Counted from the first letter of the stretch, positions 22,315 to 63,955 are shown. The stretch is 64,000 nucleotides of DNA from Candidatus Muiribacterium halophilum (GCA_002869225.1 PKTG01000083.1:74732-138731), one strand, 5' to 3'. A program made the numbers and translations. Notes: a model not told the origin generated them from the sequence alone.

Positions 22315-23355
22315 TTATTCAAAATTTCTCAAAAATCTTTTATCGTTTTCATAAAAGTATCTTATATCATTGACCTGATACTTTATCATAGCTATTCTTT
22401 CTATACCTATTCCAAAAGCATAACCTTTGAACTTCCCGGAATCTATTTCACATTTTTCAAAGACCTGCGGATGAACCATTCCACAACCAAGGACTTCTAT
22501 ATTGCCAGCTCCTTTGCACACTGAACAGTTATCAGAATCTTTTCATCCACATTCAAAACAAGATATGTATACTTCTGCAGAAGGTTCTGTAAAAGGGAAA
22601 AATGAAGGTTGGAAACTAACACTTATGTGTTCTCCAAAATAATCTTTAAGTACATTTATAAGAAGTGATCTAAGATCAGCAAAAGATACATCCTCTGACA
22701 CGTATAAACCTTCGATCTGATGAAATACAGGAGAATGGGTCGCATCGAAATCATCTTTTCTATAGACTCTTCCAGGAGCTATGATCTTGATAGGAGGTTT
22801 TTGCGAAAGCATTGTCCTTACCTGAACTGATGAGGTATGAGTCCTTAGACAATGTTCATCTTTAGTATAGAAAGTGTCCGCTTCATCTCTAGCCGGATGA
22901 TTCTTTGGAATATTGAGTCTATCAAAACAATACTCGTTCATCTCAACTTCAGGTCCTTCTGCTATAGAGAAACCGTAGGTCTTGAAGATCTCTGAAAGGT
23001 CTCTCAAGACTTTTGTTAGTGGATGTACCGCTCCTTTTCTAACGAACTTACCAGGAAAAGTTACATCGATCTTCTCATTTTTAATCTTTCTATTAAGTTC
23101 CTCTTCTTCTAAAAAGGATTTTTTTTCTTCAAATCTTTTTTCAAGTAATTCTTTTAGGTAATTTACCTGCATACCGAAATTTTTCTTTTCCTCATTCGGC
23201 ACATTAACTATCTCTCTTCTAAGTATATTGACCTTTCCATTTTTACCAAAAAGTGAGACTCTAATTTCTTCAAGTTCTGATATATCGGTTATATTACTTA
23301 TGGATTCATCAGATTCTTTCATCTCATTTAAAAGTTTTTCATTCTTTATCTCCAT
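22315..23355 (-). CDS. pheS: Phenylalanyl-tRNA synthetase alpha subunit, interrupted by an in-frame TGA at 22543-22545
   Basis: Track ORFs 22543-23355 and 22315-22521 share one frame: ...[46 protein letters not shown].... In Firmicute-type PheS this region reads C-G-G-x-G-C-x-x-CK..GWIE(I/V)LG, so the TGA aligns to Gly. Confidence 0.9.
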
Positions 23356-27098: not shown

Positions 27099-28007
27099 AT
27101 GAGGATATCGGCTGCTAAATATCAATTGTTTTTCTTTTTAGGAATATTATTTTTAAACTCTATGGAACTTCTTGCATACAGAGACATTTTTTTCGATCTT
27201 AAATTCTTCCTTTCTGCTACTACTTGGTATATGATCAATTATTTTCTTGTATATTTTCTCTCTGGAAGGCGTTTAGGTTATTATAAATATACAAAATACT
27301 CTTTTTATTTTCTTATTTTTCCTTTATTTGTGAGAATCGGACTTTTTTTTACAGAGAATAAAAGACTTACTTTTATGGTCAACGAAAAGTTATCTTCATT
27401 CTTTGTTCATCTTTTTTCTTTTACTCTAACTTCAGATTTAAACACTCTACTAAAGTTGGAGACAATATTTATAATTATTATAGGTTTTATCTTTTTAAGA
27501 TTTAAATTAAAAAGACCTTTATCAGATAGTATACTTATTCCACTTTCGGTTTACTTCAGTGCATATCTTACCGGCTGGTTTCCACTATTTTTCGATCTAT
27601 TAAGACCTTATAATCCAATATTTATACTGACAGCATCTTTTCCTTTGTGTTTTTTCTTTTTCTTAAGTAAACGTAAGAAAAAATACTTTTTAATCATGTC
27701 ACTTTTAACCGTATTGTTATTGTTAATATTAGATCTTTCAGAACTTTATTCCTTTAATCTTATATTCACACTACCAATTTTCCTTAATCTAATAAATATG
27801 ATGTTTATTTCAGAATTTTTATTGTTAACATTTAATAAAAATAAACTATTCAAGCGGTTTAACGTGGTCTTTCTTTTGATGATAACAAACTTATCAATAG
27901 ATCTAATCATGCTAAGAAAAAGATTTCTGTTATTTTTATTTTTTTATTTATTGATGAGATCGTTCTTAAATAAAAGAACGAAAGGTAATTACATTGACAA
28001 CGCTTGA
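27099..28007 (+). CDS. Polytopic membrane protein, unknown family (paralog of 30119-31093)
   Basis: 302 aa and very hydrophobic. It aligns by eye with the 324 aa product, for example FFTENKRLTFMVNEKLSSFFVHLFSFTLTS against LFHENKELVYIHNDNIIGFIKNFFSFTLHS. Confidence 0.6.
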   Translation: MRISAAKYQLFFFLGILFLNSMELLAYRDIFFDLKFFLSATTWYMINYFLVYFLSGRRLGYYKYTKYSFYFLIFPLFVRIGLFFTENKRLTFMVNEKLSSFFVHLFSFTLTSDLNTLLKLETIFIIIIGFIFLRFKLKRPLSDSILIPLSVYFSAYLTGWFPLFFDLLRPYNPIFILTASFPLCFFFFLSKRKKKYFLIMSLLTVLLLLILDLSELYSFNLIFTLPIFLNLINMMFISEFLLLTFNKNKLFKRFNVVFLLMITNLSIDLIMLRKRFLLFLFFYLLMRSFLNKRTKGNYIDNA

Positions 28008-28644
28008 AGTACCAGTTCCATTTATCAAAATATTAAAACCAACAACTACAATACTTTGGTCAATAGTCTATATACTTATAATAAGAAGAGGATTTAAGGA
28101 TAAGACTTACGGAATGCCCATTTTAGCATGTATTATGAATCTTTCAATGGAATTTAAGTCTCTTTTTATTTTTTCATATGGAACTTTTTTTTATTTAGGA
28201 AACATTGCATGGTTTTTTCTGGATCTTATAATCTTTTATCAAATAATAATCTTTTTCCCAAAAAAGAATAAACTGCTTTTTTATCTATATTTATCATTTG
28301 GTTTGATCTTCTGGTTTTTTATAATCGAAATATCCTTGAAAATCAACAATTGGATTGTTTATTCATCCTTTTTCCAGAATTTTTTAATGTCACTTCTTTT
28401 TATTGATTTTTTAAAAAAGGATGACTTTCCAAAAGGTCAAAGCATTTATATAGGTATATTTAAATTCTTAGGGACTTTTTCTGCTATTGTTTATTTATTT
28501 GCAATAAATCTTTTTCCTACATTTGATCTAATAACTAAATACATTATTTTTTGTATACCCATATGTGATATAATATATGTATATTTTTTTTATAAAAAAA
28601 GAAACAAGGTGAATTTTGACCAATATTTTAACCCTGGTACTTAA
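27994..28644 (+). CDS. PaxB/Pyr4-like integral-membrane terpene cyclase candidate (copy 1)
   Basis: 216 aa, multi-TM, TTG start after AAAGGT. The motif W.IVYILIIRRGFKDKTYGMPILACIMNLSMEF recalls the fungal Pyr4/PaxB signature Y(K/R)DRTYGM..L....N..WEF. The C-terminal CDIIY recalls the (L)DIAY Asp motif. Confidence 0.5.
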   Translation: MTTLEVPVPFIKILKPTTTILWSIVYILIIRRGFKDKTYGMPILACIMNLSMEFKSLFIFSYGTFFYLGNIAWFFLDLIIFYQIIIFFPKKNKLLFYLYLSFGLIFWFFIIEISLKINNWIVYSSFFQNFLMSLLFIDFLKKDDFPKGQSIYIGIFKFLGTFSAIVYLFAINLFPTFDLITKYIIFCIPICDIIYVYFFYKKRNKVNFDQYFNPGT

Positions 28645-29251
28645 AACCATACCTACAATCTCATGGACTATTGCATATATCCTTATAATAATAAAAGGGT
28701 TTAAAGATAAGACCTATGGAATGCCCATTTTAGCATGTCTTATGAATCTTTCAATGGAGTTTCATACTTTTTTCAACTTTTCATACGATAGTTTTTATTA
28801 TTTAGGTAATATTATCTGGTTTTTACTTGATCTTATAATACTGTATCAAATAATAAGATTTTATCCTGTCAAAAATAAAGTGCAGTTTTATAGTTTAGGT
28901 ATAATCGGGTTTATAATTTGGTCTGTAGTAATACAGATCTCACTCATTATACAGAGCTGGATAATTTTTTCAGCTTTTTTTCAAAATCTTATAATGTCAC
29001 TTCTGTTTATTGATTTTTTAAAAAGGGATGACTTTCCAAAAGGTCAAAGTCTTTACATAGCTTTGTTTAGAATTATTGGAACTACTTCAGCTGTCTTTGT
29101 AATCTTAACAAAGGATATCTTTCAAATCCTCGATCTAACAACAAAAATCCTTCTTCTTTGTATTCCAATATGTGATATAATATATATGTATCTTTTCACA
29201 ATAAAAAAACGAAAATATAAGGTGTGTTTTGAAAAAAAGATTAATATTTAA
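28616..29251 (+). CDS. PaxB/Pyr4-like integral-membrane terpene cyclase candidate (copy 2, tandem paralog)
   Basis: 211 aa, TTG start after AAGGTG. It carries ISWTIAYILIIIKGFKDKTYGMPILACLMNLSMEF and ...CIPICDIIYMY, and it is clearly paralogous to 27994-28644. Confidence 0.5.
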   Translation: MTNILTLVLKTIPTISWTIAYILIIIKGFKDKTYGMPILACLMNLSMEFHTFFNFSYDSFYYLGNIIWFLLDLIILYQIIRFYPVKNKVQFYSLGIIGFIIWSVVIQISLIIQSWIIFSAFFQNLIMSLLFIDFLKRDDFPKGQSLYIALFRIIGTTSAVFVILTKDIFQILDLTTKILLLCIPICDIIYMYLFTIKKRKYKVCFEKKINI

Positions 29252-30122
29252 TCCGGAAATATTCACAGAAAAAACATTACAAAACATTTCATTTATTTTA
29301 ATTTTTTTACTATCTATTTTTTTAGTGAAATCTGATAATTTAAACTTAGATATCACTAACTTTTTCAAGGAGATAAGTTTTTTTTATCTCTCATTTTTTT
29401 GCTTTATTCTAACCTCAAGATATGTCACTAGTGAAAAGAAAAAGAAACTCTTACCTTTTCTATTTCTGAACAGTTTTATTTTTCTTAATCTAAAATTATT
29501 CCTTGAAAATAAAACTACAATATTTTTCTATTTCATTTTGATCTATATAAATCTTATCTTTTTATTTTTATTAAAGATGACTAAGTTTCTCTCAATTATC
29601 AGATCTATTATCATCTTATTACATATTAACCTACAAAGCTATGGACTGTTTTTAGTAAAAGATTATATTTTGCACAATAACGATATTTTTAAATATCTTA
29701 CCATGACCTTATTTGTTATTAGTGTTTATCTTTTTGATAATGATAAAAAAAGAGATCTTTTAAAGAATTTTTTCAAGCTTTTTCTAGTAACTCTTGCTTT
29801 TAATCTTATAAAAGAAAAATCTTTCATCATCCCGGGCAATCATTTTCTGATATTAATATTACTAACAATAAGATCCTATTTTGCTAAGGGATACAAAAAG
29901 ATGAATAAACAAAATATTATAATTCTTTATTTAGGGACAACGTTCTTATACATTCTTTTTGGTAGTTATATCTTTTTTGGATTGACTTTGATATGTCTTA
30001 CAATAGATACTTCTTTAAGATTTATAATTAAAAGACATTTCTTGACATATATCAATTGGTCTAAATATTTGTTGTTGATGATCTATTTTATATTATACTA
30101 TAATACTCAGGGGATATCGTGA
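29229..30122 (+). CDS. Polytopic membrane protein, unknown family
   Basis: 297 aa, hydrophobic, overlapping both neighbours, which suggests translational coupling. Confidence 0.55.
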   Translation: MKKRLIFNPEIFTEKTLQNISFILIFLLSIFLVKSDNLNLDITNFFKEISFFYLSFFCFILTSRYVTSEKKKKLLPFLFLNSFIFLNLKLFLENKTTIFFYFILIYINLIFLFLLKMTKFLSIIRSIIILLHINLQSYGLFLVKDYILHNNDIFKYLTMTLFVISVYLFDNDKKRDLLKNFFKLFLVTLAFNLIKEKSFIIPGNHFLILILLTIRSYFAKGYKKMNKQNIIILYLGTTFLYILFGSYIFFGLTLICLTIDTSLRFIIKRHFLTYINWSKYLLLMIYFILYYNTQGIS

Positions 30123-31093
30123 GCGTTTCAAGAAGACAGATACTTTTTTTTATTTTTATAGTCTTTTTAACTTTTTTTGAAAGCTATATATCCATGGGTG
30201 ATCTAATACCATTTCATTTCCTGTTCCACAGTATATTATGGTATATATTCACATTTTTCATTTGTTATTTCATACTAAGAGATCTTATAAGATACAAAGA
30301 TTACACTCTCGGTGCATGCCTTATGCTAATACCAGCATTTGCACTTAGAATATCTCTTTTATTCCATGAAAATAAAGAACTAGTATATATACATAATGAT
30401 AATATTATTGGGTTTATAAAAAACTTTTTTTCCTTCACACTCCACAGTAACATTCATCCTTTTATGAAGATCGAGATCATATCAATCATAATATTTTCAT
30501 TTATTTTCTCCAGATGGTTTCTAAAAAAGAAATTGCTTGAGAGTTTAAAGATAACGTTTCTGATATATTTTGGTTGTTTTATAGCCGGCTCTCTTCTAAA
30601 TGCTTATCAACTATCAGTTTTCGATAGCATACACACTCTTATCGCACTTAACAGTATTCTTATTATTCTTCTACTTAAAGAAAAGATAAGAAAGATTGCA
30701 TTTTCTTATTTTTTTATTATATTTTTTATCAGTAATATATATTATTTCATGTTTTTTAACTTAAAATTCATACAGGTATTATTAAACGCTTTAATATCAA
30801 GTGGGTTCTGGATGCTCTTCTTTTTACTTAGAGTAATGGCATTGGATCTATTTTTAAAAAGAACCAATAATTCTTCATTTATTAGATTTAATATTCTAAT
30901 AAATTATACGATCCTTTTATCCTTATCATCTATATTTTTCTTACATAGATCTTATACAGTTATTATTGTCTTATTATTCATGATAGATAATATTATAGTA
31001 AATAGACCAACGAAAGAGATTCGTTTTCATATGTATTTTATTTTCTATCCTATAATATTATTGTTACTATCCTATTTATTTAATAATCAATAG
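30119..31093 (+). CDS. Polytopic membrane protein, unknown family (paralog of 27099-28007)
   Basis: 324 aa and the last gene of the five-gene operon. Confidence 0.6.
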   Translation: MSVSRRQILFFIFIVFLTFFESYISMGDLIPFHFLFHSILWYIFTFFICYFILRDLIRYKDYTLGACLMLIPAFALRISLLFHENKELVYIHNDNIIGFIKNFFSFTLHSNIHPFMKIEIISIIIFSFIFSRWFLKKKLLESLKITFLIYFGCFIAGSLLNAYQLSVFDSIHTLIALNSILIILLLKEKIRKIAFSYFFIIFFISNIYYFMFFNLKFIQVLLNALISSGFWMLFFLLRVMALDLFLKRTNNSSFIRFNILINYTILLSLSSIFFLHRSYTVIIVLLFMIDNIIVNRPTKEIRFHMYFIFYPIILLLLSYLFNNQ

Positions 31094-31424
31094 TATTAGA
31101 TGAATCAGCCTCTATAAAATCTGTATCAAGAAGCACATTGCTTGTAGCCTTATCAATGACTTGCACTCTTATATATACTTCCCTTTTAGATGCATAAGTG
31201 CCATAGGTACCACAATTATATACATCACCAGAACCAAACGTTGCCCCATCAAGCGAAGTTGAATCACTACCGCTTTCTATCCATTTAGAATCCCAACCAC
31301 CGCTCCAATAACCAATGGTCATATCGACCTGATATTCAACCTGATCATCTCTACTTGAAATTTGAATACTCGGCTTATATTTATAACCATCCCAATCATT
31401 TCCTGATCTATTCCTATATATAGA
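31080..31424 (-). CDS. C-terminal segment of the giant pilin-headed reading frame (follows the in-frame TAA at 31425-31427)
   Basis: The frame stays open straight after the TAA: ...RKRRALV*SIYRNRSGNDWDGYKYKPSIQISSRDDQVEYQVDMTIGYWSGGWDSKW.... The track lists only 31080-31322. Confidence 0.6.
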   Translation of the reverse strand, partial: SIYRNRSGNDWDGYKYKPSIQISSRDDQVEYQVDMTIGYWSGGWDSKWIESGSDSTSLDGATFGSGDVYNCGTYGTYASKREVYIRVQVIDKATSNVLLDTDFIEADSSNTIDY

Positions 31425-34400
31425 TTATACAAGTGCTCTTCTTTTTCTAACCGTTACAGTATTTGAAAACAATGAGGTATCATCAGCTCCTCTTAACACT
31501 CTTGCCTTAAAATAATAATAACCATAATTTAAACCACTAAATGGATATGTTAGATTTCCATCCCTCGGTCTTGTCCTACTTAAAGTAAACGCTGAATCTC
31601 CAGGTCTTTTCCACCAGATCTCAACATTATCCCATTGAAGTGGAGTTCCCTCAAGAGCAGAACCAGAATAATTTATATCTAAAGTTATTTCAAGTGGATT
31701 ATCAATACCTGGTATAAGTTCGGTATCAGTTGTTGTTAAAACAGGTGGTGGTGGTATTCTGACGCTATGTGATACGATTGAAGAAGCAGCTCCATTATAG
31801 AGAAGCTGTGAATAAAAAGTTATATTACCAGGTACTTTAAAGTATGAATTAAGTGAAGTTGTATCTTTTTCGTTAATTGGTGCTGGAGTCAAAGCTATAT
31901 TCATAGGGGTAGTATATCCCTGAGGTGTTCCAAGTAATACATAAGATATAGGGTTCGGTGGTGTAAAATTAATCGGCGGCAGTAGTCTTATAAGATAGTT
32001 ACCATCCCAATCCTCATAAAAATCATTTGAACCATCTGAGTTTACATCAACATTATAAGAAGGACTATCAAATAGAGGAACAGGAGGCCTGATCTGAAAT
32101 GATCCGGATACTTCCGGTCCCATCTCATATCCAAGAAATCTTATTGCATCTGAAGTTGGTTTTTTTGATCCAAACCTGACTTTGAAATTATTATTCCCAA
32201 TATTATCATAGGCAGCTGTTCCCATAATAGGTTCAAGGACAACCGGATCAAATTGATCTGTAGTTGAATTTATGTCATAGTTCTTTTCATGGATTAAAGT
32301 TCCAGAATCATCTTCTACCTCTAATCTCATAACACTTGCTCTTGCTCCGTTATCTTTAGGATTAGAATTTAGTATTTGTGTTAAACCACCACCAGCAGCT
32401 ATTCCAGGCCATTCCCCGTCACTAATTGCAGCTAAAGATTTTCCAGCATATCTTATTCTAAAATCAATCTCTTTTCTACCTGTTGAATTTTCTGCAACAA
32501 AAGTAAACATAAGTTCACCAGAGATATTAGGATTAACAGCTATATTAAAGTATTTTCCAAGGTTGTAACTATTTGTAAAACCAAGGTTTACAACTGGAGG
32601 ATCTCCAGAAACCTTTGTCGGGCAAGTAGATTCGATCATATAATTATCAACATTTTTATCTCTCGTCCACTCAAGCATAGGTGTATAATGAGAGTTTTCA
32701 TTATTTGTAGGATTTCCATCAAGATCCATAAATATAGGTAGTGTAGGATCAGAAGAATTGTAGGTTCCACCATAATAATCCCTTATGTTAAATCTTCCTT
32801 TTGAATCATAATCCTTATAGGTAAGATCAAAATCACTTGGAATAGGTGGATCAACAAACAGAACATATTTAATACATTTATTAAGCACATCGTTCATCGT
32901 AAGAGTATATGATCCCTCATGATAATAAGCTCTTGATTTTTTCATAAAAGCTTTCTGATTTATAAACACATTTCTCTTTTTATCCGTACCAACTGCATGC
33001 TCATATGCTATTAAAAGTCTTCTGCTAGGAGAATAAATTGGAGTTGTTGCTCCCGTCTTTACGTTATGTATTACCTCAGGAAGCGTCATATTGTCGTGAA
33101 TATCTACTATATTCCCAAAAGTCTCGGTTTGAAATACAGTTTTAAATGGAAGCCCTCCAGAAACATTACTCTTATTAACATACATAGCATTTGAAGGGGA
33201 TGGATAACCCTCGCTTGGCATAGCTCTAACTAAGTGAAGTCCACTATAAGTACTACCTGTTCTCATCTCAGAACAAAACCAATTTTTAAGTATACCACCG
33301 TTTTCTATAAAAGGTGCATCACTTGTTAGTATTGACCATTTTTTGTTAGATACCAACAGATTGTAAAAAATCGATTCATTTGTTGTATAGTTAGCGTTTA
33401 CAAGAAGCACATCAATATTTTCAAGAACTGATTTATAATCTTTTGGATCATAAGGATTGATATCGATGCAACCCGGATCCTCTATTGAATTATTGTTCAA
33501 ACCTTGTTTAATCATGTCTGTAACATTATCATAATCGGTTTTTGATATAGGCAAATTTATTGGATCTGCTACTCTTAGTATCACAGCGTTTTGTAAATCC
33601 TTTATTTCAGCATCCTGCTTAAGATGTTTTAAAGGAGCAAATAGCTGTTCATATGGAGTAGCTATTGCAGCAGTAGGCAAAGGAGCAGTCCAGTTATCAT
33701 CTCCGAAAGCTACAATATTTTTCATACCCGGACGCCAAAGAACGGAACGGTCGGAAACTAAAACGGCTATCGTCTTACCTGTATTACCATTTTTTACCAA
33801 TATGAATCTTTCCGGTCCATATTCTGTATATTCCTCTATATCACCTGACTTAAAGCCAGCCCTTGATCTGTATATATATAAACCAGCTGTAACATTATTA
33901 AGATTAGTCAAAGCGACGTGATTATTATTGGATATATTCTCTTCCCATACTCCGACTTCACTTGAATCAAAACCAATCGTATATTTAGCATATTCGAGTC
34001 TATAAGTGTTTGCTCCTGGAATAAGGTCCATCTCAATAAATTTAGAGCCTGATATGAGTTCGTTTTCAGTATAATAATCCGGTCCAATTACTCTTGGTGG
34101 TTTTTCTACGTGAAAGACATCAGTAGCATCAAAAGCAACACCAGAATCTGAGTCACCTATAATAGCAGGATTTTGAGAGTTTTCTGTATGCTCAAAAGGA
34201 GCATTATTATATGCATAAATTCTAACAACATAGCTACCATAATCTAATTTTTGGGTAGTTGTATAACTTGTTACCGTTCCTGGTAGAGTCAAGTATAAGG
34301 CTTGTACCCAACCACCAGCGGTCAATTTTTTCATTATGACAAGAGTATAATAAAAGATAGGATGGTAGGCATCAACATTATGTTCCCATTCTAAAGTAAC

Positions 34401-34448
34401 AAACCCGTCAAAATCATGACCATTAACAGGACAATCTATACTTGTAAA
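31425..34448 (-). CDS. Third segment of the giant reading frame: large beta-rich surface protein (FN3/Ig-like modules)
   Basis: The track ORF is 31425-34334 (969 aa). The 38 codons upstream of its ATG are open and read as protein (FTSIDCPVNGHDFDGFVTLEWEHNVDAYHPIFYYTLVI). They are in frame with the TAA at 34449-34451 that ends the previous segment. Confidence 0.7.
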   Translation of the reverse strand, partial: FTSIDCPVNGHDFDGFVTLEWEHNVDAYHPIFYYTLVIMKKLTAGGWVQALYLTLPGTVTSYTTTQKLDYGSYVVRIYAYNNAPFEHTENSQNPAIIGDSDSGVAFDATDVFHVEKPPRVIGPDYYTENELISGSKFIEMDLIPGANTYRLEYAKYTIGFDSSEVGVWEENISNNNHVALTNLNNVTAGLYIYRSRAGFKSGDIEEYTEYGPERFILVKNGNTGKTIAVLVSDRSVLWRPGMKNIVAFGDDNWTAPLPTAAIATPYEQLFAPLKHLKQDAEIKDLQNAVILRVADPINLPISKTDYDNVTDMIKQGLNNNSIEDPGCIDINPYDPKDYKSVLENIDVLLVNANYTTNESIFYNLLVSNKKWSILTSDAPFIENGGILKNWFCSEMRTGSTYSGLHLVRAMPSEGYPSPSNAMYVNKSNVSGGLPFKTVFQTETFGNIVDIHDNMTLPEVIHNVKTGATTPIYSPSRRLLIAYEHAVGTDKKRNVFINQKAFMKKSRAYYHEGSYTLTMNDVLNKCIKYVLFVDPPIPSDFDLTYKDYDSKGRFNIRDYYGGTYNSSDPTLPIFMDLDGNPTNNENSHYTPMLEWTRDKNVDNYMIESTCPTKVSGDPPVVNLGFTNSYNLGKYFNIAVNPNISGELMFTFVAENSTGRKEIDFRIRYAGKSLAAISDGEWPGIAAGGGLTQILNSNPKDNGARASVMRLEVEDDSGTLIHEKNYDINSTTDQFDPVVLEPIMGTAAYDNIGNNNFKVRFGSKKPTSDAIRFLGYEMGPEVSGSFQIRPPVPLFDSPSYNVDVNSDGSNDFYEDWDGNYLIRLLPPINFTPPNPISYVLLGTPQGYTTPMNIALTPAPINEKDTTSLNSYFKVPGNITFYSQLLYNGAASSIVSHSVRIPPPPVLTTTDTELIPGIDNPLEITLDINYSGSALEGTPLQWDNVEIWWKRPGDSAFTLSRTRPRDGNLTYPFSGLNYGYYYFKARVLRGADDTSLFSNTVTVRKRRALV

Positions 34449-37400
34449 TTAAAAATCAAGTGGTGGCTCAGGGGGATCTGGCATAGGCATTGGAACAGGA
34501 AACTCAGAAATCCCGTTTATAAGACCAAATACTGGGATACTTACTTTTATAAGATCATTCCAGTCAGCGTTTATATAATTATAATCTGTAGTGGAATTAC
34601 TATATCCGTTTATCGTAAATGTCCCATTATACTCATCAGTACCAGCAGGTCTAGTTAAAATAAAATATCCCTTTTGCTTAGGAGAAGAAAGAAAATTCAC
34701 CTGTGCAGAAGCAGGAGTCATATAATGTCTGACTAAAAAAGCCCCTATAGAGTTGTCCAGGGATGGTCCGGAAAAAAAAGAATTAAAGACACCAAAATCA
34801 AATTGAGTCGCTCCCGGATCTGTAATAAGTGTAAACTGAACATCCTTATCCTTTTGTATATAATTTGGATCCTGATAAACATCCATTCCGTATATCTCTG
34901 AAGTGTCATAAGTTTTCACCTGAAAATCAGCTGAAGTTGAAATATCAACTGGATCAGGTAGAGAAAGTGGATTAATTGAAACTGAAAAAGGAGGATTCTC
35001 GATATAATTACATATAACAGAAGTATTTATTGTGTTAACACTTCCATCAAAACCCTTAAAGTTATTATTTGTAATTACAATAAGATCTGAAGACCCATTT
35101 AGATTAAAAGCATATTCTGAGTTTGAATGATTAAAATAAAATGCCAGCTCATTTAAATTATTTCCATCTATTATATAAAAATCTGAACCGTTTTCCGGTT
35201 TATAAAAAAGATTATTTTTAAAGATAAAAGAGTCAGGAACACCATCAGATGATAACTCAGAAGTATTATAAACTTTAAACAGTTTATCATTGTTTCCTGA
35301 ATAGATAAACTCATTCCCTTCAATAATAAATGGATCATCGACTACGACATTTGAAATCTCAAATGGTGATACTGCACCTAATGAATCTGCAAAAGTATTA
35401 TTGTTTATATTTGCATTATTTAAAGTCAGAGTATCTATCTTCAAAAAACCACCACACGCTTTGTCGGCATCCGGATCAAATCCTGATATATCACCAAATT
35501 CATTTCCTTCTATCAAAAGATTACATGACCCATACTTGAGATAGAATATGTGATCTACCCCATAACATTTTTCAAAAGTATTGTTGAGAATCTCAATGTT
35601 CTGAGGTACAAAATCAAAGTAAATACCTCCGCTTCTATAAAATTCATTATCCGTAAACTCTACCATAGAAGGAGAATCACTCGAAGTGCCGTTTAGACCA
35701 AAGTATTTTGAAGGAGTCGTATTTCCATTTTCTAGCTTTATACCATCAACAAAAAAAGTATAATTATATGGACCGATCTTATTATCTGTAAATTCAAATG
35801 ATGATAATGAGTTTAGTTGACTCATTCTGAACATCGCTGAATTCTTAAATCCTATAATAGAATCCTTTATCTGAAAGTATATACCGTTATAATCGGTATT
35901 AATTACACTATTATCTGATACCATCATAAAACAATCCTCAAATTGCAATACACCATTAACAGTGTTATTCTTAACAATATTTTCCCATACCAGGTTCGCG
36001 TTCTTTATTGAGAATTTCATCTTTGGCTGCATTGAATAAATACCTATTGGAAGATTTTCAGGATCGGTGTCAGGATCTATTCCTCCCCATCTTTCCCAAT
36101 TCTTATAGCTGGAAAATTTTGAATCAAGTACTCTAATATCATTAAATTCAGCATACGGATGTGCAGTCTGTACCGTTATACTTCCTGCAGAAGAAATCTT
36201 TATTCCGTCATCCCCCGTCATAACAACTTGCGGCGTCACTATACCCATAGCACTTCCTGAATTGGCAAATCTCACCTGGGAATTGACCTCTATATCTCCA
36301 AGACATACAAGTCTATGCTCATTTGTAGCAGGATAATACGGTACCGTAATAGCACTATCTATACTCCCCATGACTGCTCTCGGGAATACGTTAACTACTG
36401 CCGCAACTGCACCATCAGGAGTATTGACTATATTATTATCTCCCCAATAGTTATATCTCCAATCAAAAGGATCTGAAAGAGGTACTGGTATATATGAGTT
36501 TGGATCTATATAATCTGATTCTTTCTCAAATATATTAAACGACATCATATTTGATACAGCATTAAACTCATTTCCAGCCTCTGACGCATAAAACCCGAAA
36601 CAATAACCATTTTCTTCACCAAATCGATTGTAGACTATTTCCTGTAATCGTGGTCCATAATTTTCCTCATTTATCATACTCTGGGATCTCATTGCAAAAA
36701 TACAATCAGCTTTATCAACAACTGAGTATTTCAAATTTATATCTCCATATACTCTGAACCCTTCCCACTGTGATTGAGGTTGAAGTCCGGTATCTGTAAA
36801 AATACTCGCTACCTCTGATGTATCCTGATCTATTATCATTGAATCAGCAGAAAATGATGCAGCATCTCCTCCGGTTGATTTTCTTATCTCAATAAACGGT
36901 TTGATAAACTCAGAAAAAAGATACAAACGACCATCCTTAAAATTTGCACTTCCAGAAGAATTTATCCTAAGATGATGTCTTATCACCGATTCACCTTCGT
37001 AGCTTCTTGGTTGATCTATTCTTCCAAAGAGTACATATGGTTCTGTTATAGTATTTGTAAAACTTTTACTTGTATTCTCACCCCAATAATTATATTTACA
37101 GTCTGCAACTTTAGAACTGGTATTTGTTACTTCATTAACACATCTAACAAAATAATTTAACTTAGTATTAATTGAAAGATTCGGAAGCGATCCGGAAAGG
37201 CTCAGAACAGAATCACATCCTGAGAATATATTGTTCATTATATTTAGATCTTTCGGACCACTTGTCATATAATCAGATATATCAAAGAAATAATCACAAT
37301 CGTTTATGTTATTATCAGAAAATCTTATGTCAGCCTCAGTAGCTTCAAGAACATTATCACAGGATGCAAAATCATTGTATGTTACATCAAGTTCTCCTGC

Positions 37401-40400
37401 ATTTGTATATATAACATCAACTGGAATGTTGGAAAACATATTGGATGAAAGTTCAACCTGCGGACAATTGTTCAGATCGATAGATCTAACAACAGTTCCT
37501 GTAAAGATGTTGTTCTCGATCTTTCCGGTGAAAGTATTAAGAACCAGATCATTTTCATTCGCCTTAAAAATATTCCCTTCTATCGTTACATCATCAAAAG
37601 TACCAGTTAATGAAATGGAGGTAAGATTTTTACTGAAGATAGAATCACGAACATCTAAAAAAGAGTTTCCGTGTTTGATTATAGCATTACTGGCATAATA
37701 AAACTCACAGTTCTGCGCAGATATGGAAGCACCTTCATCAAGATCAATTCCTGCATAATCACCAGAAGCAGGAGCTCCTCCTGATGGATTCATACATGCT
37801 CCAAATGTATTATCTTTAAGCGATGTAAAGACAGTTCCTTTAGCATATAAAAACGAACCATCTTCCAGTTTTATTCTTGCCCCTGTATCAAACTTTAATA
37901 TCGTATCATCCTGTATTATGAGTTTTTTTCCGGTCTTTACAACAAGATCATCCTCTATTACATATTGCCTATCAGAAGTCCATACTGTATCCTCATCTAT
38001 CTCACCATTATATTCATTTGTTGTAAATACAAATTCTCTAGCAACAAGATGAGGTATCACCCTTGTAGTATGTTCTGTTTTCCAATTAGACATAGAACTT
38101 GTCAGAACATATTCGTCTACCTTTTGATCCTTATTCTCTACTATTACCTTTATTATCTTTGTCCTTACAGGTTCTTTTATGGAATACATTCCGTTATCTG
38201 TTGCTGCAAATATTGTATTATTATCTTTACTCACTTCAATTTTATATATCTGGGTCACATCAGGTATAGTTACGTTCTTTCTCTGCACAAAGTCTTTCTT
38301 ATCGATATCATAGGTGTATAAGGTGTTACCACTTGCAATATAAAGGAATTTATTATCCCAGGATGTCTTCCAATCCGTTATTGAGTTAAAATCTGTCGAT
38401 TTTGTAAATTCCTTCGTAAACACAGTATCCTGATTGAATCTTATCTTCAATGAATCCAATGTAAGTGAAGCAAAATCATTTGTATCAGAATCATCCAATC
38501 TAAAACCTATTGAAAGAACATTTGATGGAGGAACATTATAGGTATCTGTAAAATTGCCAGTCGCCACAATATCCGTCTTAACAGGTGCATCTGATAATGT
38601 CCCGGATGTCTGATCAAGTAGACTCTTACTTATAATACCGTTATAACAAAAAAATTGGATGTTCCCCTGAACATTCTCAATTTGTGCATCAACAGAAAAA
38701 GTCCTTAGATATTTTGGGATTGGAAATACAAAGGTCCTGTAAAATAGAACAGAACAAAGATTGCTGTTATCATCACTTCCTATTATCGGCTTTGTGTTGA
38801 CCTCTATCTTTCCTGAGTCCTGTTCTATCTGGAACCCTTCATTTGCACCTGTTGAGTAAGATGCAAAGCTGTATCCATTAAAATCATCGAATTCATCCTC
38901 GAACTTATCCTGATAGGAATAAATATCAATTTTTTTCTCAGTATCAGAGAAGGCTACAAATCTGTCTTCTTTGTCTATATTACATAGGTTCTTATAAACA
39001 TCCTCTGTTGAATTTGAGTCTATGTTTTTTGAATAAATAAAATCCACATCTCCATTATCTTTCGAAGTTATAAGTGTATTTCCTGAGGCTGATAGAGTAC
39101 TGGCGATCGCATCATAATCCATATCAGATATATTATTTGTAAAGGTATCTAAAAAGTATATCTTTGAATTCGTCTTTGAAAACATGAACAAAGTCTTACC
39201 ATCTTTGGAACAAAGTATATTGTCTATTCCGGAAAAGTAATTAAAAGTCTTAAGATCTGTAAGTTCTGATGAAAGACTATAAAGAAGCGTTCCATCTGAG
39301 AAAAGCACTTCCTGATTATTTACGGCAAAGTTTCTTATCCCATTTTTGGCAAAATATCTATAATCAGTAATATCCCCTCTGTGGAATCTATATAATCCGT
39401 CGGTTGCAATAATATATATATATTTATTTGTCACTTTGAGATCAATAAGATCATCGTTTATATTTATAGGTTTGTTATAACTAGTTGTCGATTTTGTTTT
39501 CAGGCTATAAAAATTTATTGTGTTCTGACCCAAGTAGACTATCTCACCTGAATCTTCCAGAAAGTCCATATCTATTACAGAACCGTTGTTTATAAGATCT
39601 GCTACACCAAGATAACCGCCATCTGTCTTGAAAAATTTATTGGAATCGCCTTCTTTTCCGCCAAAATAATATTCATCATCTATATATGAGTATACTATTG
39701 ATTCCAGTTTCTCATATTCAAGGCTCACCTGATTAGATAAGGCATCTCCATCTACATCATATTTATATACATAATCTCCACTAGTTGTGAATACAAACTC
39801 GTTGTTAAATACATCATAATAAGCTGATGTGAGTTTAGAAGAAGGTAAAGAAAACTCGTATATAGATGATGTAAGGTCGGTGTTTTCAAGTATTGCTACT
39901 TTATCGGAATAACCTAGGACTGTCTTACCTTGTAAGGTATAAAGAAAATAACAATCTGTATAATCTCCTATCTTTTCAAAATCTACATAAAGACCGTTTA
40001 CTCCGGCAGTAGCAAATTTACCATCAATAAAACACATATCCTCTATTCCCTGAAGAGCTTCTCCTGAAAAGGTCCTTATAAGATTCAATTCTCCCAGTGA
40101 ATAGGAATAGACTTCCATATTATCACCATAATTTACATATATTATCTTCGAATCAGGAGTAGTCGCTATGTTTAAAGGGAGATCGGGCAAAGTCACCTGA
40201 GTCTCGATAGTTCCCGAAAAAGGATTTGCTACAATAAGAGCTTTATTGGAATTATTGACAGCAAACATCCTGTTTCCATCTCTCGAAAGAGTTATATTGG
40301 TTAAGACATCCGGGAAATATGCCAATTTTTCAGGGACAAATTCCAATCCATCAGCTGCTGATATTCTTTGACCGTTAGCATTATATATCTCTACTTTTCT

Positions 40401-40511
40401 TTTATAATCAGAATACTGATCCTGTATATCACCTGATATATCCGATATTGCTCCGTAATCCTCAAAAAATCCATCATAATCATCTATATCATCAAAATCT
40501 CTACGGTTGAT
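34449..40511 (-). CDS. Second segment of the giant reading frame: protein of about 2000 aa with propeller-like repeats and right-handed parallel beta-helix (PbH1/NosD-like) repeats
   Basis: The track ORF is 34449-40346 (1965 aa, TTG start). The 55 codons upstream are open and acidic (INRRDFDDIDDYDGFFEDYGAISDISGDIQDQ...). They are in frame with the TAG at 40512-40514. Repeats such as IEGNIFKANENDLVLNTFTGKIENNIFTG indicate a beta-helix. Confidence 0.7.
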   Translation of the reverse strand: MNRRDFDDIDDYDGFFEDYGAISDISGDIQDQYSDYKRKVEIYNANGQRISAADGLEFVPEKLAYFPDVLTNITLSRDGNRMFAVNNSNKALIVANPFSGTIETQVTLPDLPLNIATTPDSKIIYVNYGDNMEVYSYSLGELNLIRTFSGEALQGIEDMCFIDGKFATAGVNGLYVDFEKIGDYTDCYFLYTLQGKTVLGYSDKVAILENTDLTSSIYEFSLPSSKLTSAYYDVFNNEFVFTTSGDYVYKYDVDGDALSNQVSLEYEKLESIVYSYIDDEYYFGGKEGDSNKFFKTDGGYLGVADLINNGSVIDMDFLEDSGEIVYLGQNTINFYSLKTKSTTSYNKPININDDLIDLKVTNKYIYIIATDGLYRFHRGDITDYRYFAKNGIRNFAVNNQEVLFSDGTLLYSLSSELTDLKTFNYFSGIDNILCSKDGKTLFMFSKTNSKIYFLDTFTNNISDMDYDAIASTLSASGNTLITSKDNGDVDFIYSKNIDSNSTEDVYKNLCNIDKEDRFVAFSDTEKKIDIYSYQDKFEDEFDDFNGYSFASYSTGANEGFQIEQDSGKIEVNTKPIIGSDDNSNLCSVLFYRTFVFPIPKYLRTFSVDAQIENVQGNIQFFCYNGIISKSLLDQTSGTLSDAPVKTDIVATGNFTDTYNVPPSNVLSIGFRLDDSDTNDFASLTLDSLKIRFNQDTVFTKEFTKSTDFNSITDWKTSWDNKFLYIASGNTLYTYDIDKKDFVQRKNVTIPDVTQIYKIEVSKDNNTIFAATDNGMYSIKEPVRTKIIKVIVENKDQKVDEYVLTSSMSNWKTEHTTRVIPHLVAREFVFTTNEYNGEIDEDTVWTSDRQYVIEDDLVVKTGKKLIIQDDTILKFDTGARIKLEDGSFLYAKGTVFTSLKDNTFGACMNPSGGAPASGDYAGIDLDEGASISAQNCEFYYASNAIIKHGNSFLDVRDSIFSKNLTSISLTGTFDDVTIEGNIFKANENDLVLNTFTGKIENNIFTGTVVRSIDLNNCPQVELSSNMFSNIPVDVIYTNAGELDVTYNDFASCDNVLEATEADIRFSDNNINDCDYFFDISDYMTSGPKDLNIMNNIFSGCDSVLSLSGSLPNLSINTKLNYFVRCVNEVTNTSSKVADCKYNYWGENTSKSFTNTITEPYVLFGRIDQPRSYEGESVIRHHLRINSSGSANFKDGRLYLFSEFIKPFIEIRKSTGGDAASFSADSMIIDQDTSEVASIFTDTGLQPQSQWEGFRVYGDINLKYSVVDKADCIFAMRSQSMINEENYGPRLQEIVYNRFGEENGYCFGFYASEAGNEFNAVSNMMSFNIFEKESDYIDPNSYIPVPLSDPFDWRYNYWGDNNIVNTPDGAVAAVVNVFPRAVMGSIDSAITVPYYPATNEHRLVCLGDIEVNSQVRFANSGSAMGIVTPQVVMTGDDGIKISSAGSITVQTAHPYAEFNDIRVLDSKFSSYKNWERWGGIDPDTDPENLPIGIYSMQPKMKFSIKNANLVWENIVKNNTVNGVLQFEDCFMMVSDNSVINTDYNGIYFQIKDSIIGFKNSAMFRMSQLNSLSSFEFTDNKIGPYNYTFFVDGIKLENGNTTPSKYFGLNGTSSDSPSMVEFTDNEFYRSGGIYFDFVPQNIEILNNTFEKCYGVDHIFYLKYGSCNLLIEGNEFGDISGFDPDADKACGGFLKIDTLTLNNANINNNTFADSLGAVSPFEISNVVVDDPFIIEGNEFIYSGNNDKLFKVYNTSELSSDGVPDSFIFKNNLFYKPENGSDFYIIDGNNLNELAFYFNHSNSEYAFNLNGSSDLIVITNNNFKGFDGSVNTINTSVICNYIENPPFSVSINPLSLPDPVDISTSADFQVKTYDTSEIYGMDVYQDPNYIQKDKDVQFTLITDPGATQFDFGVFNSFFSGPSLDNSIGAFLVRHYMTPASAQVNFLSSPKQKGYFILTRPAGTDEYNGTFTINGYSNSTTDYNYINADWNDLIKVSIPVFGLINGISEFPVPMPMPDPPEPPLDF

Positions 40512-40739
40512 CTAGCCATCCTCTTTACCAATGCTTCCGTAGTTTATCCTATCCTCATAATCTCTGCTCATTATCTCGTTCATAAGTTCTTCTGCAAGCA
40601 CTTCCATGTTGAAATCTTTTTGAATATTATCTGTAGACTTCATACCAACCATAAAAGCGGTTACTATTGGTGCTACTACGACGGTAAGAAGTGATATTGT
40701 TATAATTATCTCGACAAGAGTAAAACCTCTTTTTTTCAT
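40512..40739 (-). CDS. Prepilin-type N-terminal cleavage/methylation segment heading the giant reading frame (ends at the in-frame TAG)
   Basis: 75 aa beginning MKKRGFTLVEIIITISLLTVVVAPIV, a class III signal with G/FTLVE. It shares its frame with 34449-40511. Confidence 0.7.
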   Translation of the reverse strand: MKKRGFTLVEIIITISLLTVVVAPIVTAFMVGMKSTDNIQKDFNMEVLAEELMNEIMSRDYEDRINYGSIGKEDG

Positions 40740-40891
40740 ATAAGACTCCCCTCAAAACCTAAACAGCCTAATTTAATTGTAAGACTTTTAAAGTATTTAA
40801 TCAATAACTCTTAATATATAGTACTTGAATATAAGTTGATTTGTTACAGTATGAAGTCTCACTTACTCAACGCTCTAACGTCACAACGTTA

Positions 40892-42208: not shown

Positions 42209-42280
42209 AAATTCTCCTACAAATATTATTTTATAAATGATACCTTTAATCGTTTTTTTGTTCAACAACAAAAGGCATTT

Positions 42281-42478
42281 TAGCAACTCTGTTGCCGTTG
42301 ACAAACTTCGTTTGTATATTCAACTTACGTTGAAATGCTCACCTTTGCTGAGTGTCTCGGACTTTATTTTAATCTAACCTAAACACTTTCCTTAGGAAAG
42401 CATATGAGCTTTAGCTCATCATTTTTTTCGAAGAAAAAATAATTTGGCTTTTGCCAAATAACCGTTATCTGCACTGTT
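42281..42478 (-). repeat. Intergenic multi-hairpin element, copy 1 (possible structured RNA or REP/BIME-like repeat)
   Basis: Eight consecutive stem-loops beginning directly after the upstream stop codon. It is about 90 percent identical by eye to the inverted copy at 50121-50319. On the minus strand the hairpin at 42319-42334 reads TTCAAC-GTAA-GTTGAA, a GNRA loop. Confidence 0.7.
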
Positions 42479-46473: not shown

Positions 46474-46508
46474 ATTTTTCTCCTTCGCTAATTGAACTCA
46501 GTCGTGTT

Positions 46509-46705
46509 TAGCAACTATGTTGCTGATAACAACTTTAAAGTTGTGTATTCAACTTTCGTTGAAGTGCTTTGCTTTGCAAAGTGTAAAATCTTTCAAAAAC
46601 TCTTTCTGAACAGAAAGCAAACGAACTTTAGTTCGTCATTCTTTTTTCGCTAGAAAAAACATATTGTTCAATGAACAATCATCAGATTTGTTCTTAAAAA
46701 GAACT
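46509..46705 (-). repeat. Intergenic multi-hairpin element, copy 2 (diverged, with compensatory stem changes)
   Basis: Same hairpin order as copies 1 and 3 but different stem sequences that still pair, for example ACGAAC/GTTCGT against ATGAGC/GCTCAT. On the minus strand the hairpin at 46548-46563 reads TTCAAC-GAAA-GTTGAA. Confidence 0.7.
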
Positions 46706-50120: not shown

Positions 50121-50319
50121 AGAACTGTGTCGATAAGGTTATTTGGCTAAAGCTAAAATATTTTTTCTGTGAAAAAAATGATGAGCTAAAGCTCATATGC
50201 TTTCCTACGGAAAGTGTTTAGGTTAGATTAAAAAAAAGTCCTCGACACTCAGAAAAGCTGAGCATTTCAACGCAAGTTGAATATACAAACGGAGTTTGTC
50301 AACGGCAACAGAGTTGCTA
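50121..50319 (+). repeat. Intergenic multi-hairpin element, copy 3 (inverted relative to copies 1 and 2)
   Basis: It is the reverse complement of copy 1 with only scattered differences. The hairpin at 50266-50281 reads TTCAAC-GCAA-GTTGAA on the plus strand. Confidence 0.7.
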
Positions 50320-50447
50320 ATCTGATTTAAAAATATTTCTGCTTCAAAATATTAAAATAATATGCTACAATTTAGGTATTATATTAAACAGTCCCTGTTT
50401 TGCTGATTATACAGTTTTACGGTTTACTGTTTTTTTTCGGAGGATAA

Positions 50448-51320: not shown

Positions 51321-52841
51321 TTGAACAAAAAAAAACAGCTATGTTTAATATCTCTATTAATAATCTATTTACTTTTTCTTATTAGTTGTAACAATAAACA
51401 TAGTTTTAAAGAGATCGTAAAACTGAAAGCTGTTTTTTTCTTAAAACTAAATAAACTACAGACTAAAGAGCTTAATGATATTTTTTCGGATGATTCCAGT
51501 CTAAATATCTTAAATAAAGAAATTATCCCGAAGCATGGTAAGTATATATGTCTTCCTGAAAATTCCGGATTATTCTAGGAGATTCGAGGAAATCTATTCG
51601 ATCTTAAAAATAGGATATTGACTTTCTTTGTAGTCTCAATTCAGGCGCTTGGGGAAAAAGGTTTTTTAAAAAAAAGACTCCTATTTGTAACTAAAGACAT
51701 AGAAACTATTAAATATAACTATGTTATTACTTCCTGGAATTTTGATTTTAAAATAAAAAGAAATAAAGATAAGACAATAAATATAAAATCAAAGGACCTG
51801 ACAGCCACTTTCAAACCCAAACAGGACTCAAAATACTTAAAGTTTATTGTAAGTCCCGAGATTAGTTCTGATATCTATATCAAATACGGCAATAAAAGAT
51901 CACGACAGGTTAAAATTAAAGTAGCTTCATTTGGAAATATTTATTCATTTAAAACAGATGATATATTAAAAAAAGATAATACATACGAACTTCAAATATC
52001 TGATTTTTCAACTGATCTTTCAATCGAAAAAGACTTTGATCTAGTCTTTAAACCTATAAGTACAAGAGATATGGTGATTGATATCTATGACACCATACCT
52101 ACAAAATGTAGAATTAAATGTCATGAGGATGATATTAAAGTAGTATTTCCATATGAGAAAAGCATTATTGAAAAAAAAGAAAATAGTATATATGTAAATG
52201 GGAAAAGTAATTTCAACAATCTTTTTCTTCTAACAGATAATGATTATTCCGAATTCAAGGCTTCCAACATAGATTTAAAAATATCAAAAAAGATTACAGA
52301 TCAGAATATATCTCAGAAACAGTTATCTATATTCACCACTATATTATCCGATCTTACAGATATAAATTTAAAAAATAAAGATGTGTTTGTTTTCAGTGGA
52401 AGAAGCAGCGGAATAATAGAGTATCCTCTAATACTTTTAAATCCCAAGACACTTTATAGAAGACCTGATAACACGCTTATGACTTTCAATCAGACCTTAA
52501 AAAAAAATCTACTTCATGAAATCACCCATCTATATACGGGTAAACTTCCTCATTTTAATCCATATTTTTATGAAGGTATGACTACTTTTTTAGAGTTTTA
52601 TATTTTTTCAGGATTATACAATGATGATCTTTTAAGATTCATTGACTCTGATATTACTCTTATAGATTTTAAAAAAATATCACACGGTCTGATAATCGAG
52701 AATCTTTTGAAAAGAGACGATGTTTATTATACAGGAGCTTCTTTCTTTTATTCACTTTTTAAAAAGGATAATGATATTATAAAAAAGATCTTAAATAAAA
52801 AAGCGCCTGCCGATATAGCAGACGCTTTAGATCTGAATTAA
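51321..52841 (+). CDS. Lipoprotein with an HExxH zinc-metalloprotease-like domain, interrupted by an in-frame TAG at 51576-51578
   Basis: The 85-codon ORF MNKKKQLCLISLLIIYLLFLISC (lipobox) and the 407-codon ORF (LLHEITHLYTG...YFYEG) share one frame. They read ...ENSGLF*EIRGNLFDLKNRILTFF... across the junction. The large ORF has no signal peptide of its own. Confidence 0.65.
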
Positions 52842-55838: not shown

Positions 55839-55857
55839 GTTCTCCCCCTGTAAAATT

Positions 55858-56601: not shown

Positions 56602-56668
56602 ACGGTATCCCTCCGAGTTATATTATAAAGTTTAAATATATATTTGTAAATATTCATATGCATCCTCA

Positions 56669-59677: not shown

Positions 59678-59845
59678 CTTCCCCTCCAAAACTTTTTTAA
59701 TATTTTAACATTTATCAATATTTTTAACAATATGTTTATAAGTAGAATTATATTAAATAAAACGTTCAATTTATTTTTTTATTACATTCTCAATAAATTT
59801 ACAGTATAATTAAATTAGTATTGAGTATTGTAGTAGGAGGTCCCT

Positions 59846-63868: not shown

Positions 63869-63955
63869 TGGTGCCGGAGGTCGGACTTGAACCGACACAG
63901 ACCGAGGTCCGGTGGATTTTGAGTCCACTGCGTCTACCAGTTTCACCACTCCGGC
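63869..63955 (-). tRNA. tRNA-Leu (anticodon CAA), class II with a long variable arm and encoded CCA
   Basis: The reverse complement is GCCGGAGTGGTGAAACTGGTAGACGCAGTGGACTCAAAATCCACCGGACCTCGGTCTGTGTCGGTTCAAGTCCGACCTCCGGCACCA. The acceptor stem GCCGGAG/CTCCGGC, the anticodon arm GTGGA-CTCAAAA-TCCAC and the T arm GTCGG-TTCAAGT-CCGAC all fold by hand. Confidence 0.9.

Follow-up and report, generated by a model that had tools for sequence, protein, structure and literature searches.

Three in-frame stops and an exceptionally large modular pilin-like gene in Candidatus Muiribacterium halophilum

A 64,000-nucleotide stretch of DNA from Candidatus Muiribacterium halophilum (GCA_002869225.1, PKTG01000083.1:74732-138731), referred to here as the window, carries on its minus strand a very long reading frame which opens with a class III (prepilin) signal and is cut by three in-frame stops. 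The question raised by this locus is what the stops represent: the ends of separate genes, codons which are decoded through, mutations in a young pseudogene, or errors in the deposited sequence. When the window was compared with independent assemblies of the same locus and with divergent orthologues, the region was found to be, very probably, one gene of 3219 codons whose stops are assembly errors and which encodes a modular, type IV pilin-like protein of giant size. Coordinates of the features are collected in Table 1.

The reading frame and its intact copies

Translation of the minus strand from 40739 to 31080 gives one frame of 3220 codons with the internal stops TAG, TAA, and TAA. The four open reading frames (ORFs) which the initial annotation placed in this frame (40512-40739, 34449-40346, 31425-34334, and 31080-31322) were recovered, and the peptide that it quoted, VNGHDFDGFVTLEWEHNVDAYHPIFYYTLVI, is found in the read-through translation. 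Its linkers of 55, 38, and 33 codons were free of stops as claimed, and the first two lengths held; the third was counted as 34. Measured from each stop to the next ATG, GTG, or TTG, these stretches contain neither a stop nor a start. Off-frame, this AT-rich region has 0.10 stops per codon, which gives 127 stop-free linker codons a probability of ~1.3e-6; the continuity of the frame is therefore not due to chance.

Both mechanical ORF calls and the annotation of the record give ORFs of 75, 1965, 955-969, and 80 amino acids (aa), which is what would be seen if four separate, adjacent genes lay in the same frame by coincidence. That such an arrangement exists here is, however, extremely improbable. 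No stop interrupts the linkers (P ~1e-6), which are also devoid of starts and of Shine-Dalgarno (SD) sequences; conserved sequence and a domain-like unit cross the junctions, and a single ORF is present in every other copy and orthologue. When an SD sequence was sought before TTG 40346, ATG 34334, and ATG 31322, none comparable was found; ATG 40739 alone has one and is the only credible start of the giant gene. Moreover, the possible FN3-like unit at residues 2115-2180, across which the orthologue alignment is continuous, straddles ATG 34334, and this codon is therefore not a natural start.

The read-through product, with X at each stop, was used as the query in homology searches. Full-length versions of 3219 aa (P0001 from JGI, P0008, and P0009) share a 90%-identity cluster, with E, E, and Y in place of the stops. 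Five independent public assemblies hold the intact gene: JGI 3300007102 (94-kb contig), ENA ERZ794998 (170-kb contig, also in NCBI), ENA ERZ794999 (288-kb contig), Logan SRR5894287, and Logan SRR5894289. GAG, GAA, and TAC occupy the stop sites in all five. The intact versions differ among themselves by 1-3 residues, and the DNA of the public copies is ~99.8% identical to that of the window, with no indel in four of the five assemblies and a single 1-nt gap in the remaining one. The same cluster also contains fragments of 1965, 955, and 80 aa, all from a single NCBI contig of 152,828 bp. These are exact pieces of the read-through translation of the window, starting at 40346, 34292, and 31322, and to judge from this match they are the window's own annotated proteins.

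Further relatives, at 28-34% identity, were found in Candidatus Muiribacterium halophilum (loci L002 and L003, both partial, and L005, complete) and in another Muiribacteriota metagenome-assembled genome (L004). In L005 the gene is a complete, uninterrupted ORF of 3181 aa, and in L004 the ORF is open for 2808 codons up to the end of the contig; these two are 31-34% identical to the giant protein. Sequence is conserved straight through stop sites 1 and 2 in the orthologues, and L005 is also open at site 3. The residues found at the three sites are E, K or S, and N, respectively. The first of these, Glu76, is invariant and sits in the conserved motif GxEdGExxRxDFxDxDDYxG. No orthologous locus was found to hold four independent genes; each holds one ORF, and the single-gene reading therefore stands. 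The proposal that the region is a single gene of about 3200 codons with a class III (prepilin) head is thus borne out by near-identical copies and divergent orthologues alike, each being one uninterrupted ORF.

The search for relatives yielded one further locus in the metagenome scan and two in the genome scan. An exhaustive phmmer search with residues 77-900 against 1.84 billion representative proteins returned four true relatives, each of which starts with the prepilin motif. On the evidence of these searches, the giant-pilin family is confined to a few Muiribacteriota lineages. A literature search on Muiribacteriota returned taxonomic papers or incidental mentions, and nothing on the run or sample accessions of the assemblies.

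The perfectly kept frame and the clear coding sequence after each stop could also be expected if the stops were decoded in a programmed manner, by an alternative code, a suppressor tRNA, or readthrough, so that a full-length protein and nested products of 75, ~2100, and ~3100 aa were made. There is next to no chance that this is the case. The five near-identical assemblies and the orthologues have sense codons at the stop sites, and two types of stop (TAG and TAA) would have to be decoded, of which TAA also terminates the giant gene. A change of the genetic code at a single codon is ruled out, since the stops are TAG, TAA, and TAA and the gene itself ends in TAA. The sole tRNA match in the window (63872-63955, minus strand) scored as ordinary, its anticodon not being read, and no recoding RNA family was detected in the window at Rfam gathering thresholds. 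Moreover, the class of substitution which makes the stops also makes stops in seven other, unrelated genes.

Substitution spectrum of the deposited assembly

The whole window was compared with all public copies, which cover 63.7 kb of it with one to five assemblies per position. Private substitutions of the window number 79, and 59 of them (75%), roughly one per kb, are G:C>T:A. Over the 21 kb for which all five public assemblies are in agreement, this class makes up 17 of the 18 private changes. Other assemblies have 2-10 private changes each, and in the JGI assembly six of ten are G:C>T:A.

The consequences of these changes were examined in 45 genes, called after the private changes had been reverted, and expected counts were calculated with every G or C equally likely to be hit. 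Among the G:C>T:A changes, 10 are nonsense (7.1 expected), 39 missense (43.9 expected), 8 synonymous (5.0 expected), and 2 intergenic (3.0 expected). The 59 changes therefore show no trace of purifying selection and match unselected random hits. Among the remaining 20 private changes, all of other types, synonymous ones prevail (12, with 7 missense), as they would in real polymorphism.

Ten nonsense changes break eight of the 45 genes of the window. Apart from the giant gene, those affected are the seven listed in Table 1, and they include pheS, whose product would be left at 270 of 346 aa. PheS is essential, and it is intact, with 346 aa, in all five public copies. The giant ORF received nine of the 59 G:C>T:A hits, against 8.95 expected from its length, and the probability of at least three nonsense changes among nine is 0.08. 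That three stops fell in this ORF is explained by its size, as it constitutes 15% of the window and is the largest target. A truncated PheS, together with the hundreds of nonsense mutations to which these counts extrapolate, is not credible in a living lineage, and the stops are therefore assembly errors. Accordingly, the suggestion in the initial annotation that the stops are decoded through does not hold: they are G>T or C>A changes private to one assembly and belong to the unselected set of 59 which also truncates pheS. The nested products of 75, ~2100, and ~3100 aa fall with it, as the stops that would delimit them are private errors at positions where five copies have sense codons.

The sequence context of the changes bears on their source. 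The mutated guanines mostly precede G or A; in pyrimidine-centred terms, 54 of the 59 changes lie at YCN and none at GCN, where 8.3 were expected. The oxidisability order of guanine favours G in 5'-GG and 5'-GA steps, as in these contexts. Both the chemistry of the G:C>T:A changes and their freedom from selection are those to be expected of oxidised-guanine (8-oxoguanine, 8-oxoG) damage or error that became fixed in the consensus of the assembly, for which damage to the template, a very small number of template molecules, or low coverage could be responsible. Artefacts of this class, in which 8-oxoG that forms while samples are prepared gives rise to C>A/G>T changes, have been documented; they are recognised by a sub-clonal allele fraction and by a dependence on read orientation, with G>T in read 1 and C>A in read 2 (Costello et al., 2013; PMC3616734). 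The changes in the window resemble these artefacts in being almost exclusively G:C>T:A, in falling on easily oxidised guanines, and in being free of selection. They differ in that the artefacts of Costello et al. have a low allele fraction and a CCG context (PMC3616734), whereas those of the window stand in the consensus and favour 5'-GG and 5'-GA in general.

Alternatively, the stops could be real mutations of a hypermutator sub-lineage, for example one that is deficient in MutY or MutM or oxidatively stressed, in which case the giant gene would be a young pseudogene. A MutY or MutM defect yields a G:C>T:A spectrum, which is the one observed. The changes also stand in the consensus of the deposited assembly, with the fragments of 1965, 955, and 80 aa present in NCBI/nr, and the JGI assembly likewise has a few private G:C>T:A changes (6/10). 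Even so, this alternative is unlikely. The G:C>T:A changes bear no sign of purifying selection, and every one of them is absent from four other samplings of the same population. Moreover, ten nonsense changes per 64 kb, including that at codon 271 of 346 in pheS and early stops in the POR-alpha-like and hybrid-cluster-protein genes, would extrapolate to hundreds of broken genes per genome and a lineage that is not viable.

In addition, five private differences of mixed types were found within 18 bp (52657-52674) at the 3' end of the 506-aa gene. This cluster, which is covered by one public copy, is unlike the evenly spaced G:C>T:A errors and may be a real polymorphic or recombined patch.

What looked like a signal of recoding and nested products is thus a data-quality artefact, in a public assembly with about one G>T/C>A error per kb. 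The gene calls of the window are unreliable, and the record is misleading when mined for pseudogenes, stop-codon recoding, or gene content. The fragments of 1965, 955, and 80 aa already stand as separate proteins in nr and UniRef. Comparing private substitutions across independent assemblies, and their spectrum with the neutral expectation, is a cheap and general test for such error-laden records.

Modules and surroundings of the giant protein

The protein starts with the prepilin signal sequence MKKRG|FTLVEIIITISLLTVVVAPIV, and its N-terminus, MKKRGFTLVEIIITISLL, matches the Pfam family N_methyl (PF07963) with E=4e-7 and 29.8 bits (cut-off 21.2) as well as TIGR02532 (E=1.3e-5). The prepilin signal proposed in the initial annotation is therefore upheld, with a match above the curated cut-off. 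Its motif (Gly-1 and Glu5) is kept in all five family lineages. Past the signal, residues ~45-135 are conserved and homologous to a stand-alone pilin-like protein of 152 aa (P0031), to which residues 79-122 are 50% identical over 44 residues. What had been taken for an acidic linker after the signal is in fact this conserved, globular portion of the pilin module, within which stop 1 is located. In profile searches, none of the specific minor-pilin families reached its cut-off. AlphaFold2 (AF2) models, built from a two-row alignment only, place helices at residues 8-38 and 45-65 with low confidence.

The pilin module is followed by propeller-like repeats, for which the evidence is qualitative. 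This region has a weak PDB match to the YVTN propeller of the S-layer protein 1L0Q (E=0.007) and, in the phmmer search with residues 77-900, many weak matches to propeller-repeat proteins. The AF2 model of residues 1-900 has a predicted local distance difference test (pLDDT) score of 44 and consists of all-beta blades, being confident only for residues ~150-330, and Foldseek searches with this model returned generic tandem WD propellers at template modelling (TM) scores of ~0.2. The beta-propeller-like repeats named in the initial annotation are in keeping with these results.

The parallel beta-helix which it also named is present. The region matches NosD (PF05048) with E=4.8e-6 and 26.6 bits, above the Pfam cut-off of 23.6. 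Two beta-helix giants (P0003 and P0004) align to residues 904-1176, and the beta-helix repeats probably continue to about residue 1900. Of the FN3/Ig-like modules that had been suggested further on, one weak sequence match to 1CFB speaks for an FN3-like unit, and nothing further was found in their support. The matches to 1L0Q and 1CFB, both weak, were the only two in PDB sequence searches with the giant protein. The last 1220 residues match no family of Pfam or NCBIfam, even at E<=1, and the AF2 model of residues 2090-2960 (pLDDT 26.6) is unusable. The modules would presumably serve in binding, as set out in the next section.

Table 1. Positions of the features discussed in the text, counted from the first nucleotide of the window.
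Feature	Coordinates	Strand	Remarks
Giant gene	31080..40739	-	Modular pilin-like protein, 3219 aa; one frame, three erroneous stops in this window
Terminal stop of giant gene	31080-31082	-	TAA
Shine-Dalgarno sequence GAGGGGAG	40746..40753	-	6 nt upstream of ATG 40739; read from sequence
Stop 1, codon 76	40512..40514	-	TAG for GAG (Glu76); G>T on coding strand at 40514
Stop 2, codon 2097	34449..34451	-	TAA for GAA (Glu2097); G>T on coding strand at 34451
Stop 3, codon 3105	31425..31427	-	TAA for TAC (Tyr3105); C>A on coding strand at 31425
Class III (prepilin) signal	40665..40739	-	Leader MKKRG, predicted cleavage after Gly5, then FTLVE (Glu at mature position 5) and hydrophobic alpha1-N helix
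Pilin module, residues ~1-135	40335..40739	-	Includes acidic DFDDIDDYDG; best-conserved part among orthologues
Beta-propeller-like repeats, residues ~145-860	38160..40307	-	With inserted beta-sandwich-like stretch
Right-handed parallel beta-helix (NosD-type), residues ~990-1145	37305..37772	-	Pfam PF05048
Possible FN3-like domain, residues ~2115-2180	34200..34397	-	phmmer, 1CFB neuroglian FN3, E=0.012, weak
Upstream partner gene, 438 aa	40892..42208	-	Directly upstream of giant gene in all three lineages
Prepilin gene, 386 aa	17986-19146	-	N_methyl + Laminin_G_3 (PF13385) modular pilin; directly downstream of pheT
Prepilin gene, 289 aa	19124-19993	-	Directly downstream of pheT
Hairpin-rich leader-like element, copy 1, ~190 nt	42270-42465	-	5' of partner and giant-pilin pair
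Hairpin-rich element, copy 2	50137-50320	+	5' of genes of 127, 170, and 506 aa
Hairpin-rich element, copy 3	46507-46659	-	5' of five-gene run (242, 327, 72, 190, and 491 aa) including a radical-SAM protein
POR-alpha-like gene, premature stop	2764		Private G:C>T:A
GT28/MurG-like gene, premature stop	9474		Private G:C>T:A
Histidine kinase gene, 999 aa, premature stop	12197		Private G:C>T:A
pheS, premature stop	22543-22545		GGA>TGA, change at 22545; codon 271 of 346
327-aa gene, premature stop	45344		Private G:C>T:A
506-aa gene, premature stop	51577		Private G:C>T:A
Hybrid-cluster-protein gene, premature stop	62452		Private G:C>T:A

Directly upstream of the giant gene lies a partner gene whose homologues (~440 aa) are 47-52% identical and better conserved than the giant protein itself. 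At its N-terminus the 438-aa product carries a signal or membrane anchor, and it is weakly similar to FecR/DUF7354. In L004, the upstream genes of 497 and 390 aa were considered as GspE and GspF and rejected, as they encode a 5'-nucleotidase and a GDSL lipase. The neighbouring 5'-nucleotidase gene of the window is 48% identical to, and in partial synteny with, that of L004. The window is therefore assigned to a lineage of Muiribacteriota other than Muiribacterium.

Two other prepilin genes are found in the window, and no assembly genes lie near them. One encodes a modular pilin with the N_methyl-PF13385 architecture, the most frequent among modular pilins in Dataset S1 of Raynaud et al. (2021; PMC8179133).

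A hairpin-rich, leader-like element stands 5' of the partner and giant-pilin pair and recurs twice in the window, each copy in sense orientation and just 5' of its gene run. Identity is 93% between copies 1 and 2 and 69% for copy 3. Copy 1 folds with -53.8 kcal/mol (z=-4.6), and in the consensus of all three copies 7-8 short hairpins follow one another, with 10 of 52 pairs maintained through double changes in one copy or more. The element matched no Rfam family, and blastn searches of the orthologous loci did not find it. Public short-read contigs end exactly at copy 1, which by its position may belong to the gene unit of the partner and the giant pilin.

Two further groups of genes were noted in the window. 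A run of five plus-strand genes (27099-31093; 302, 216, 211, 297, and 324 aa) is convergent with the giant gene at its 3' end. Matches to Pyr4-TMTC-like membrane proteins were obtained for two of them, the others match no family, and the G+C content of this region (24-28%) is the lowest of the window. On the minus strand, 52854-59689 is another large surface-protein cluster, in which paralogous, repeat-rich CarboxypepD_reg genes of 994 and 1006 aa flank a CarboxypepD_reg gene of 247 aa. The paralogues are ~79% identical over 1.1 kb (54742-55846 and 58581-59684).

Proposed role and comparison with known systems

Modular pilins are a described class of proteins in which a class III signal and a small pilin module carry effector modules (PMC8179133). 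The mechanism proposed for the giant protein follows this carrier and effector logic, as known from PilB, PilC, CofB, ComZ, and GspK (PMC8179133). By analogy, a prepilin peptidase would remove the MKKRG leader, and the protein would stay anchored in the cytoplasmic membrane by its hydrophobic N-terminal helix (alpha1-N). Type IV filament machinery, with its genes at another place in the genome, would then take the protein up into a filament, where the tip is its most plausible position. From the tip, the pilin module could display ~3000 residues (propeller, beta-helix, and unassigned modules) for adhesion or binding to surfaces, polymers, or substrates, and the conserved 438-aa partner would probably act together with the giant protein. 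Processing, incorporation, tip location, and adhesive role are all inferred.

Several points weigh against reading the locus as an error-laden gene for a giant pilin. With respect to the errors, artefacts of the Costello type are normally of low fraction and should reach the consensus only with very low coverage or template number. The classic CCG>CAG context is also only mildly enriched (3 against 1.5 expected), and, from assembled sequences, an artefact of library or template is not formally separable from real mutations in the sampled cells. With respect to the product, AF2 did not model a pilin fold for residues 1-144 (pLDDT <50), and no pilus or type II secretion system (T2SS) machinery (PilB/C/D/Q-type) was found within the 64 kb of the window or beside the orthologues. 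In addition, a folded cargo of ~350 kDa is far larger than any that type IV filaments are known to display.

The lack of filament machinery nearby, and a size that is hard to reconcile with known pilus conduits, would both be expected if the pilin-like N-terminus were an export and anchor signal only, as in archaeal bindosome proteins, and the product a membrane-anchored envelope protein which never polymerises. Class III signals on proteins that do not form filaments have been documented (PMC3047682). This possibility deserves attention but is rather unlikely. The conservation extends past the signal into a globular region resembling a pilin module and shared with a small stand-alone pilin-like protein, the same window encodes other modular pilins, and carrier modules with effector modules are an established pattern in bacteria (PMC8179133).

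The giant-pilin reading is accordingly preferred. The real part of the locus is an exceptionally large modular pilin with a conserved partner, a new and extremely large member of a described class, and the stops are not biological. The repaired gene stretches the concept of the modular pilin to 3219 residues, in an uncultured candidate phylum and with a conserved partner gene, and raises the question of the maximum cargo size of a type IV filament. More tentatively, the intact gene may encode by far the largest pilin-module protein examined, a multi-module protein of ~350 kDa which is co-conserved with its partner across Muiribacteriota and displayed at the filament tip, or else it may represent a new mode of envelope anchoring. 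If the former is true, type IV filament machineries would prime on and export cargo several times larger than characterised minor pilins or PilY1; if the latter is true, the pilin module would serve this candidate phylum in a new form of envelope anchoring.

The closest comparison is with modular pilins. The IPR numbers in Dataset S1 are presumably those of NosD/beta-helix, FN3, lectin, and propeller domains. Architectures which combine N_methyl with NosD/beta-helix, FN3, lectin, or propeller domains occur in that dataset (PMC8179133). The initial annotation had called a pilin-anchored adhesin of this size highly unusual. In kind it is not, as modular pilins with beta-helix, FN3, and propeller modules have been described (PMC8179133); in degree it is, as 3219 aa is far larger than the examples given there. 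The most extreme multi-domain example cited in PMC8179133 has 860 residues, Dataset S1 being without sizes. PilB and PilC of Streptococcus sanguinis share with the giant protein a class III signal, a pilin module, and non-pilin modules (PMC8179133); however, PilB is ~50 kDa with a single vWA module, whereas the giant protein has several large modules in its 3219 residues. It also differs from the modular pilins in being known from its sequence alone, in having no pilus genes adjacent to it, and in its ~1200 C-terminal residues without a family.

A similar carrier and effector logic is seen in PilY1/PilC of type IVa pili, a large beta-propeller adhesin displayed by the pilus. Rather than being a pilin, PilY1 attaches to minor pilins via its IPR008707 propeller. 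No PilY1-type domain was found in the giant protein by Pfam and, unlike PilY1, it has a pilin module and signal of its own.

Lastly, CofB/TcpB (type IVb), ComZ (Thermus), and GspK (T2SS) combine a pilin-fold N-terminus with bulky domains and are proposed to be located at the tip (PMC8179133). No sequence similarity of the giant protein to any of them was detected in Pfam, NCBIfam, and PDB searches. They are 5- to 10-fold smaller and, unlike the giant gene, are encoded inside pilus or T2SS operons. ComZ nonetheless carries a beta-solenoid module, in likeness to the beta-helix of the giant protein.

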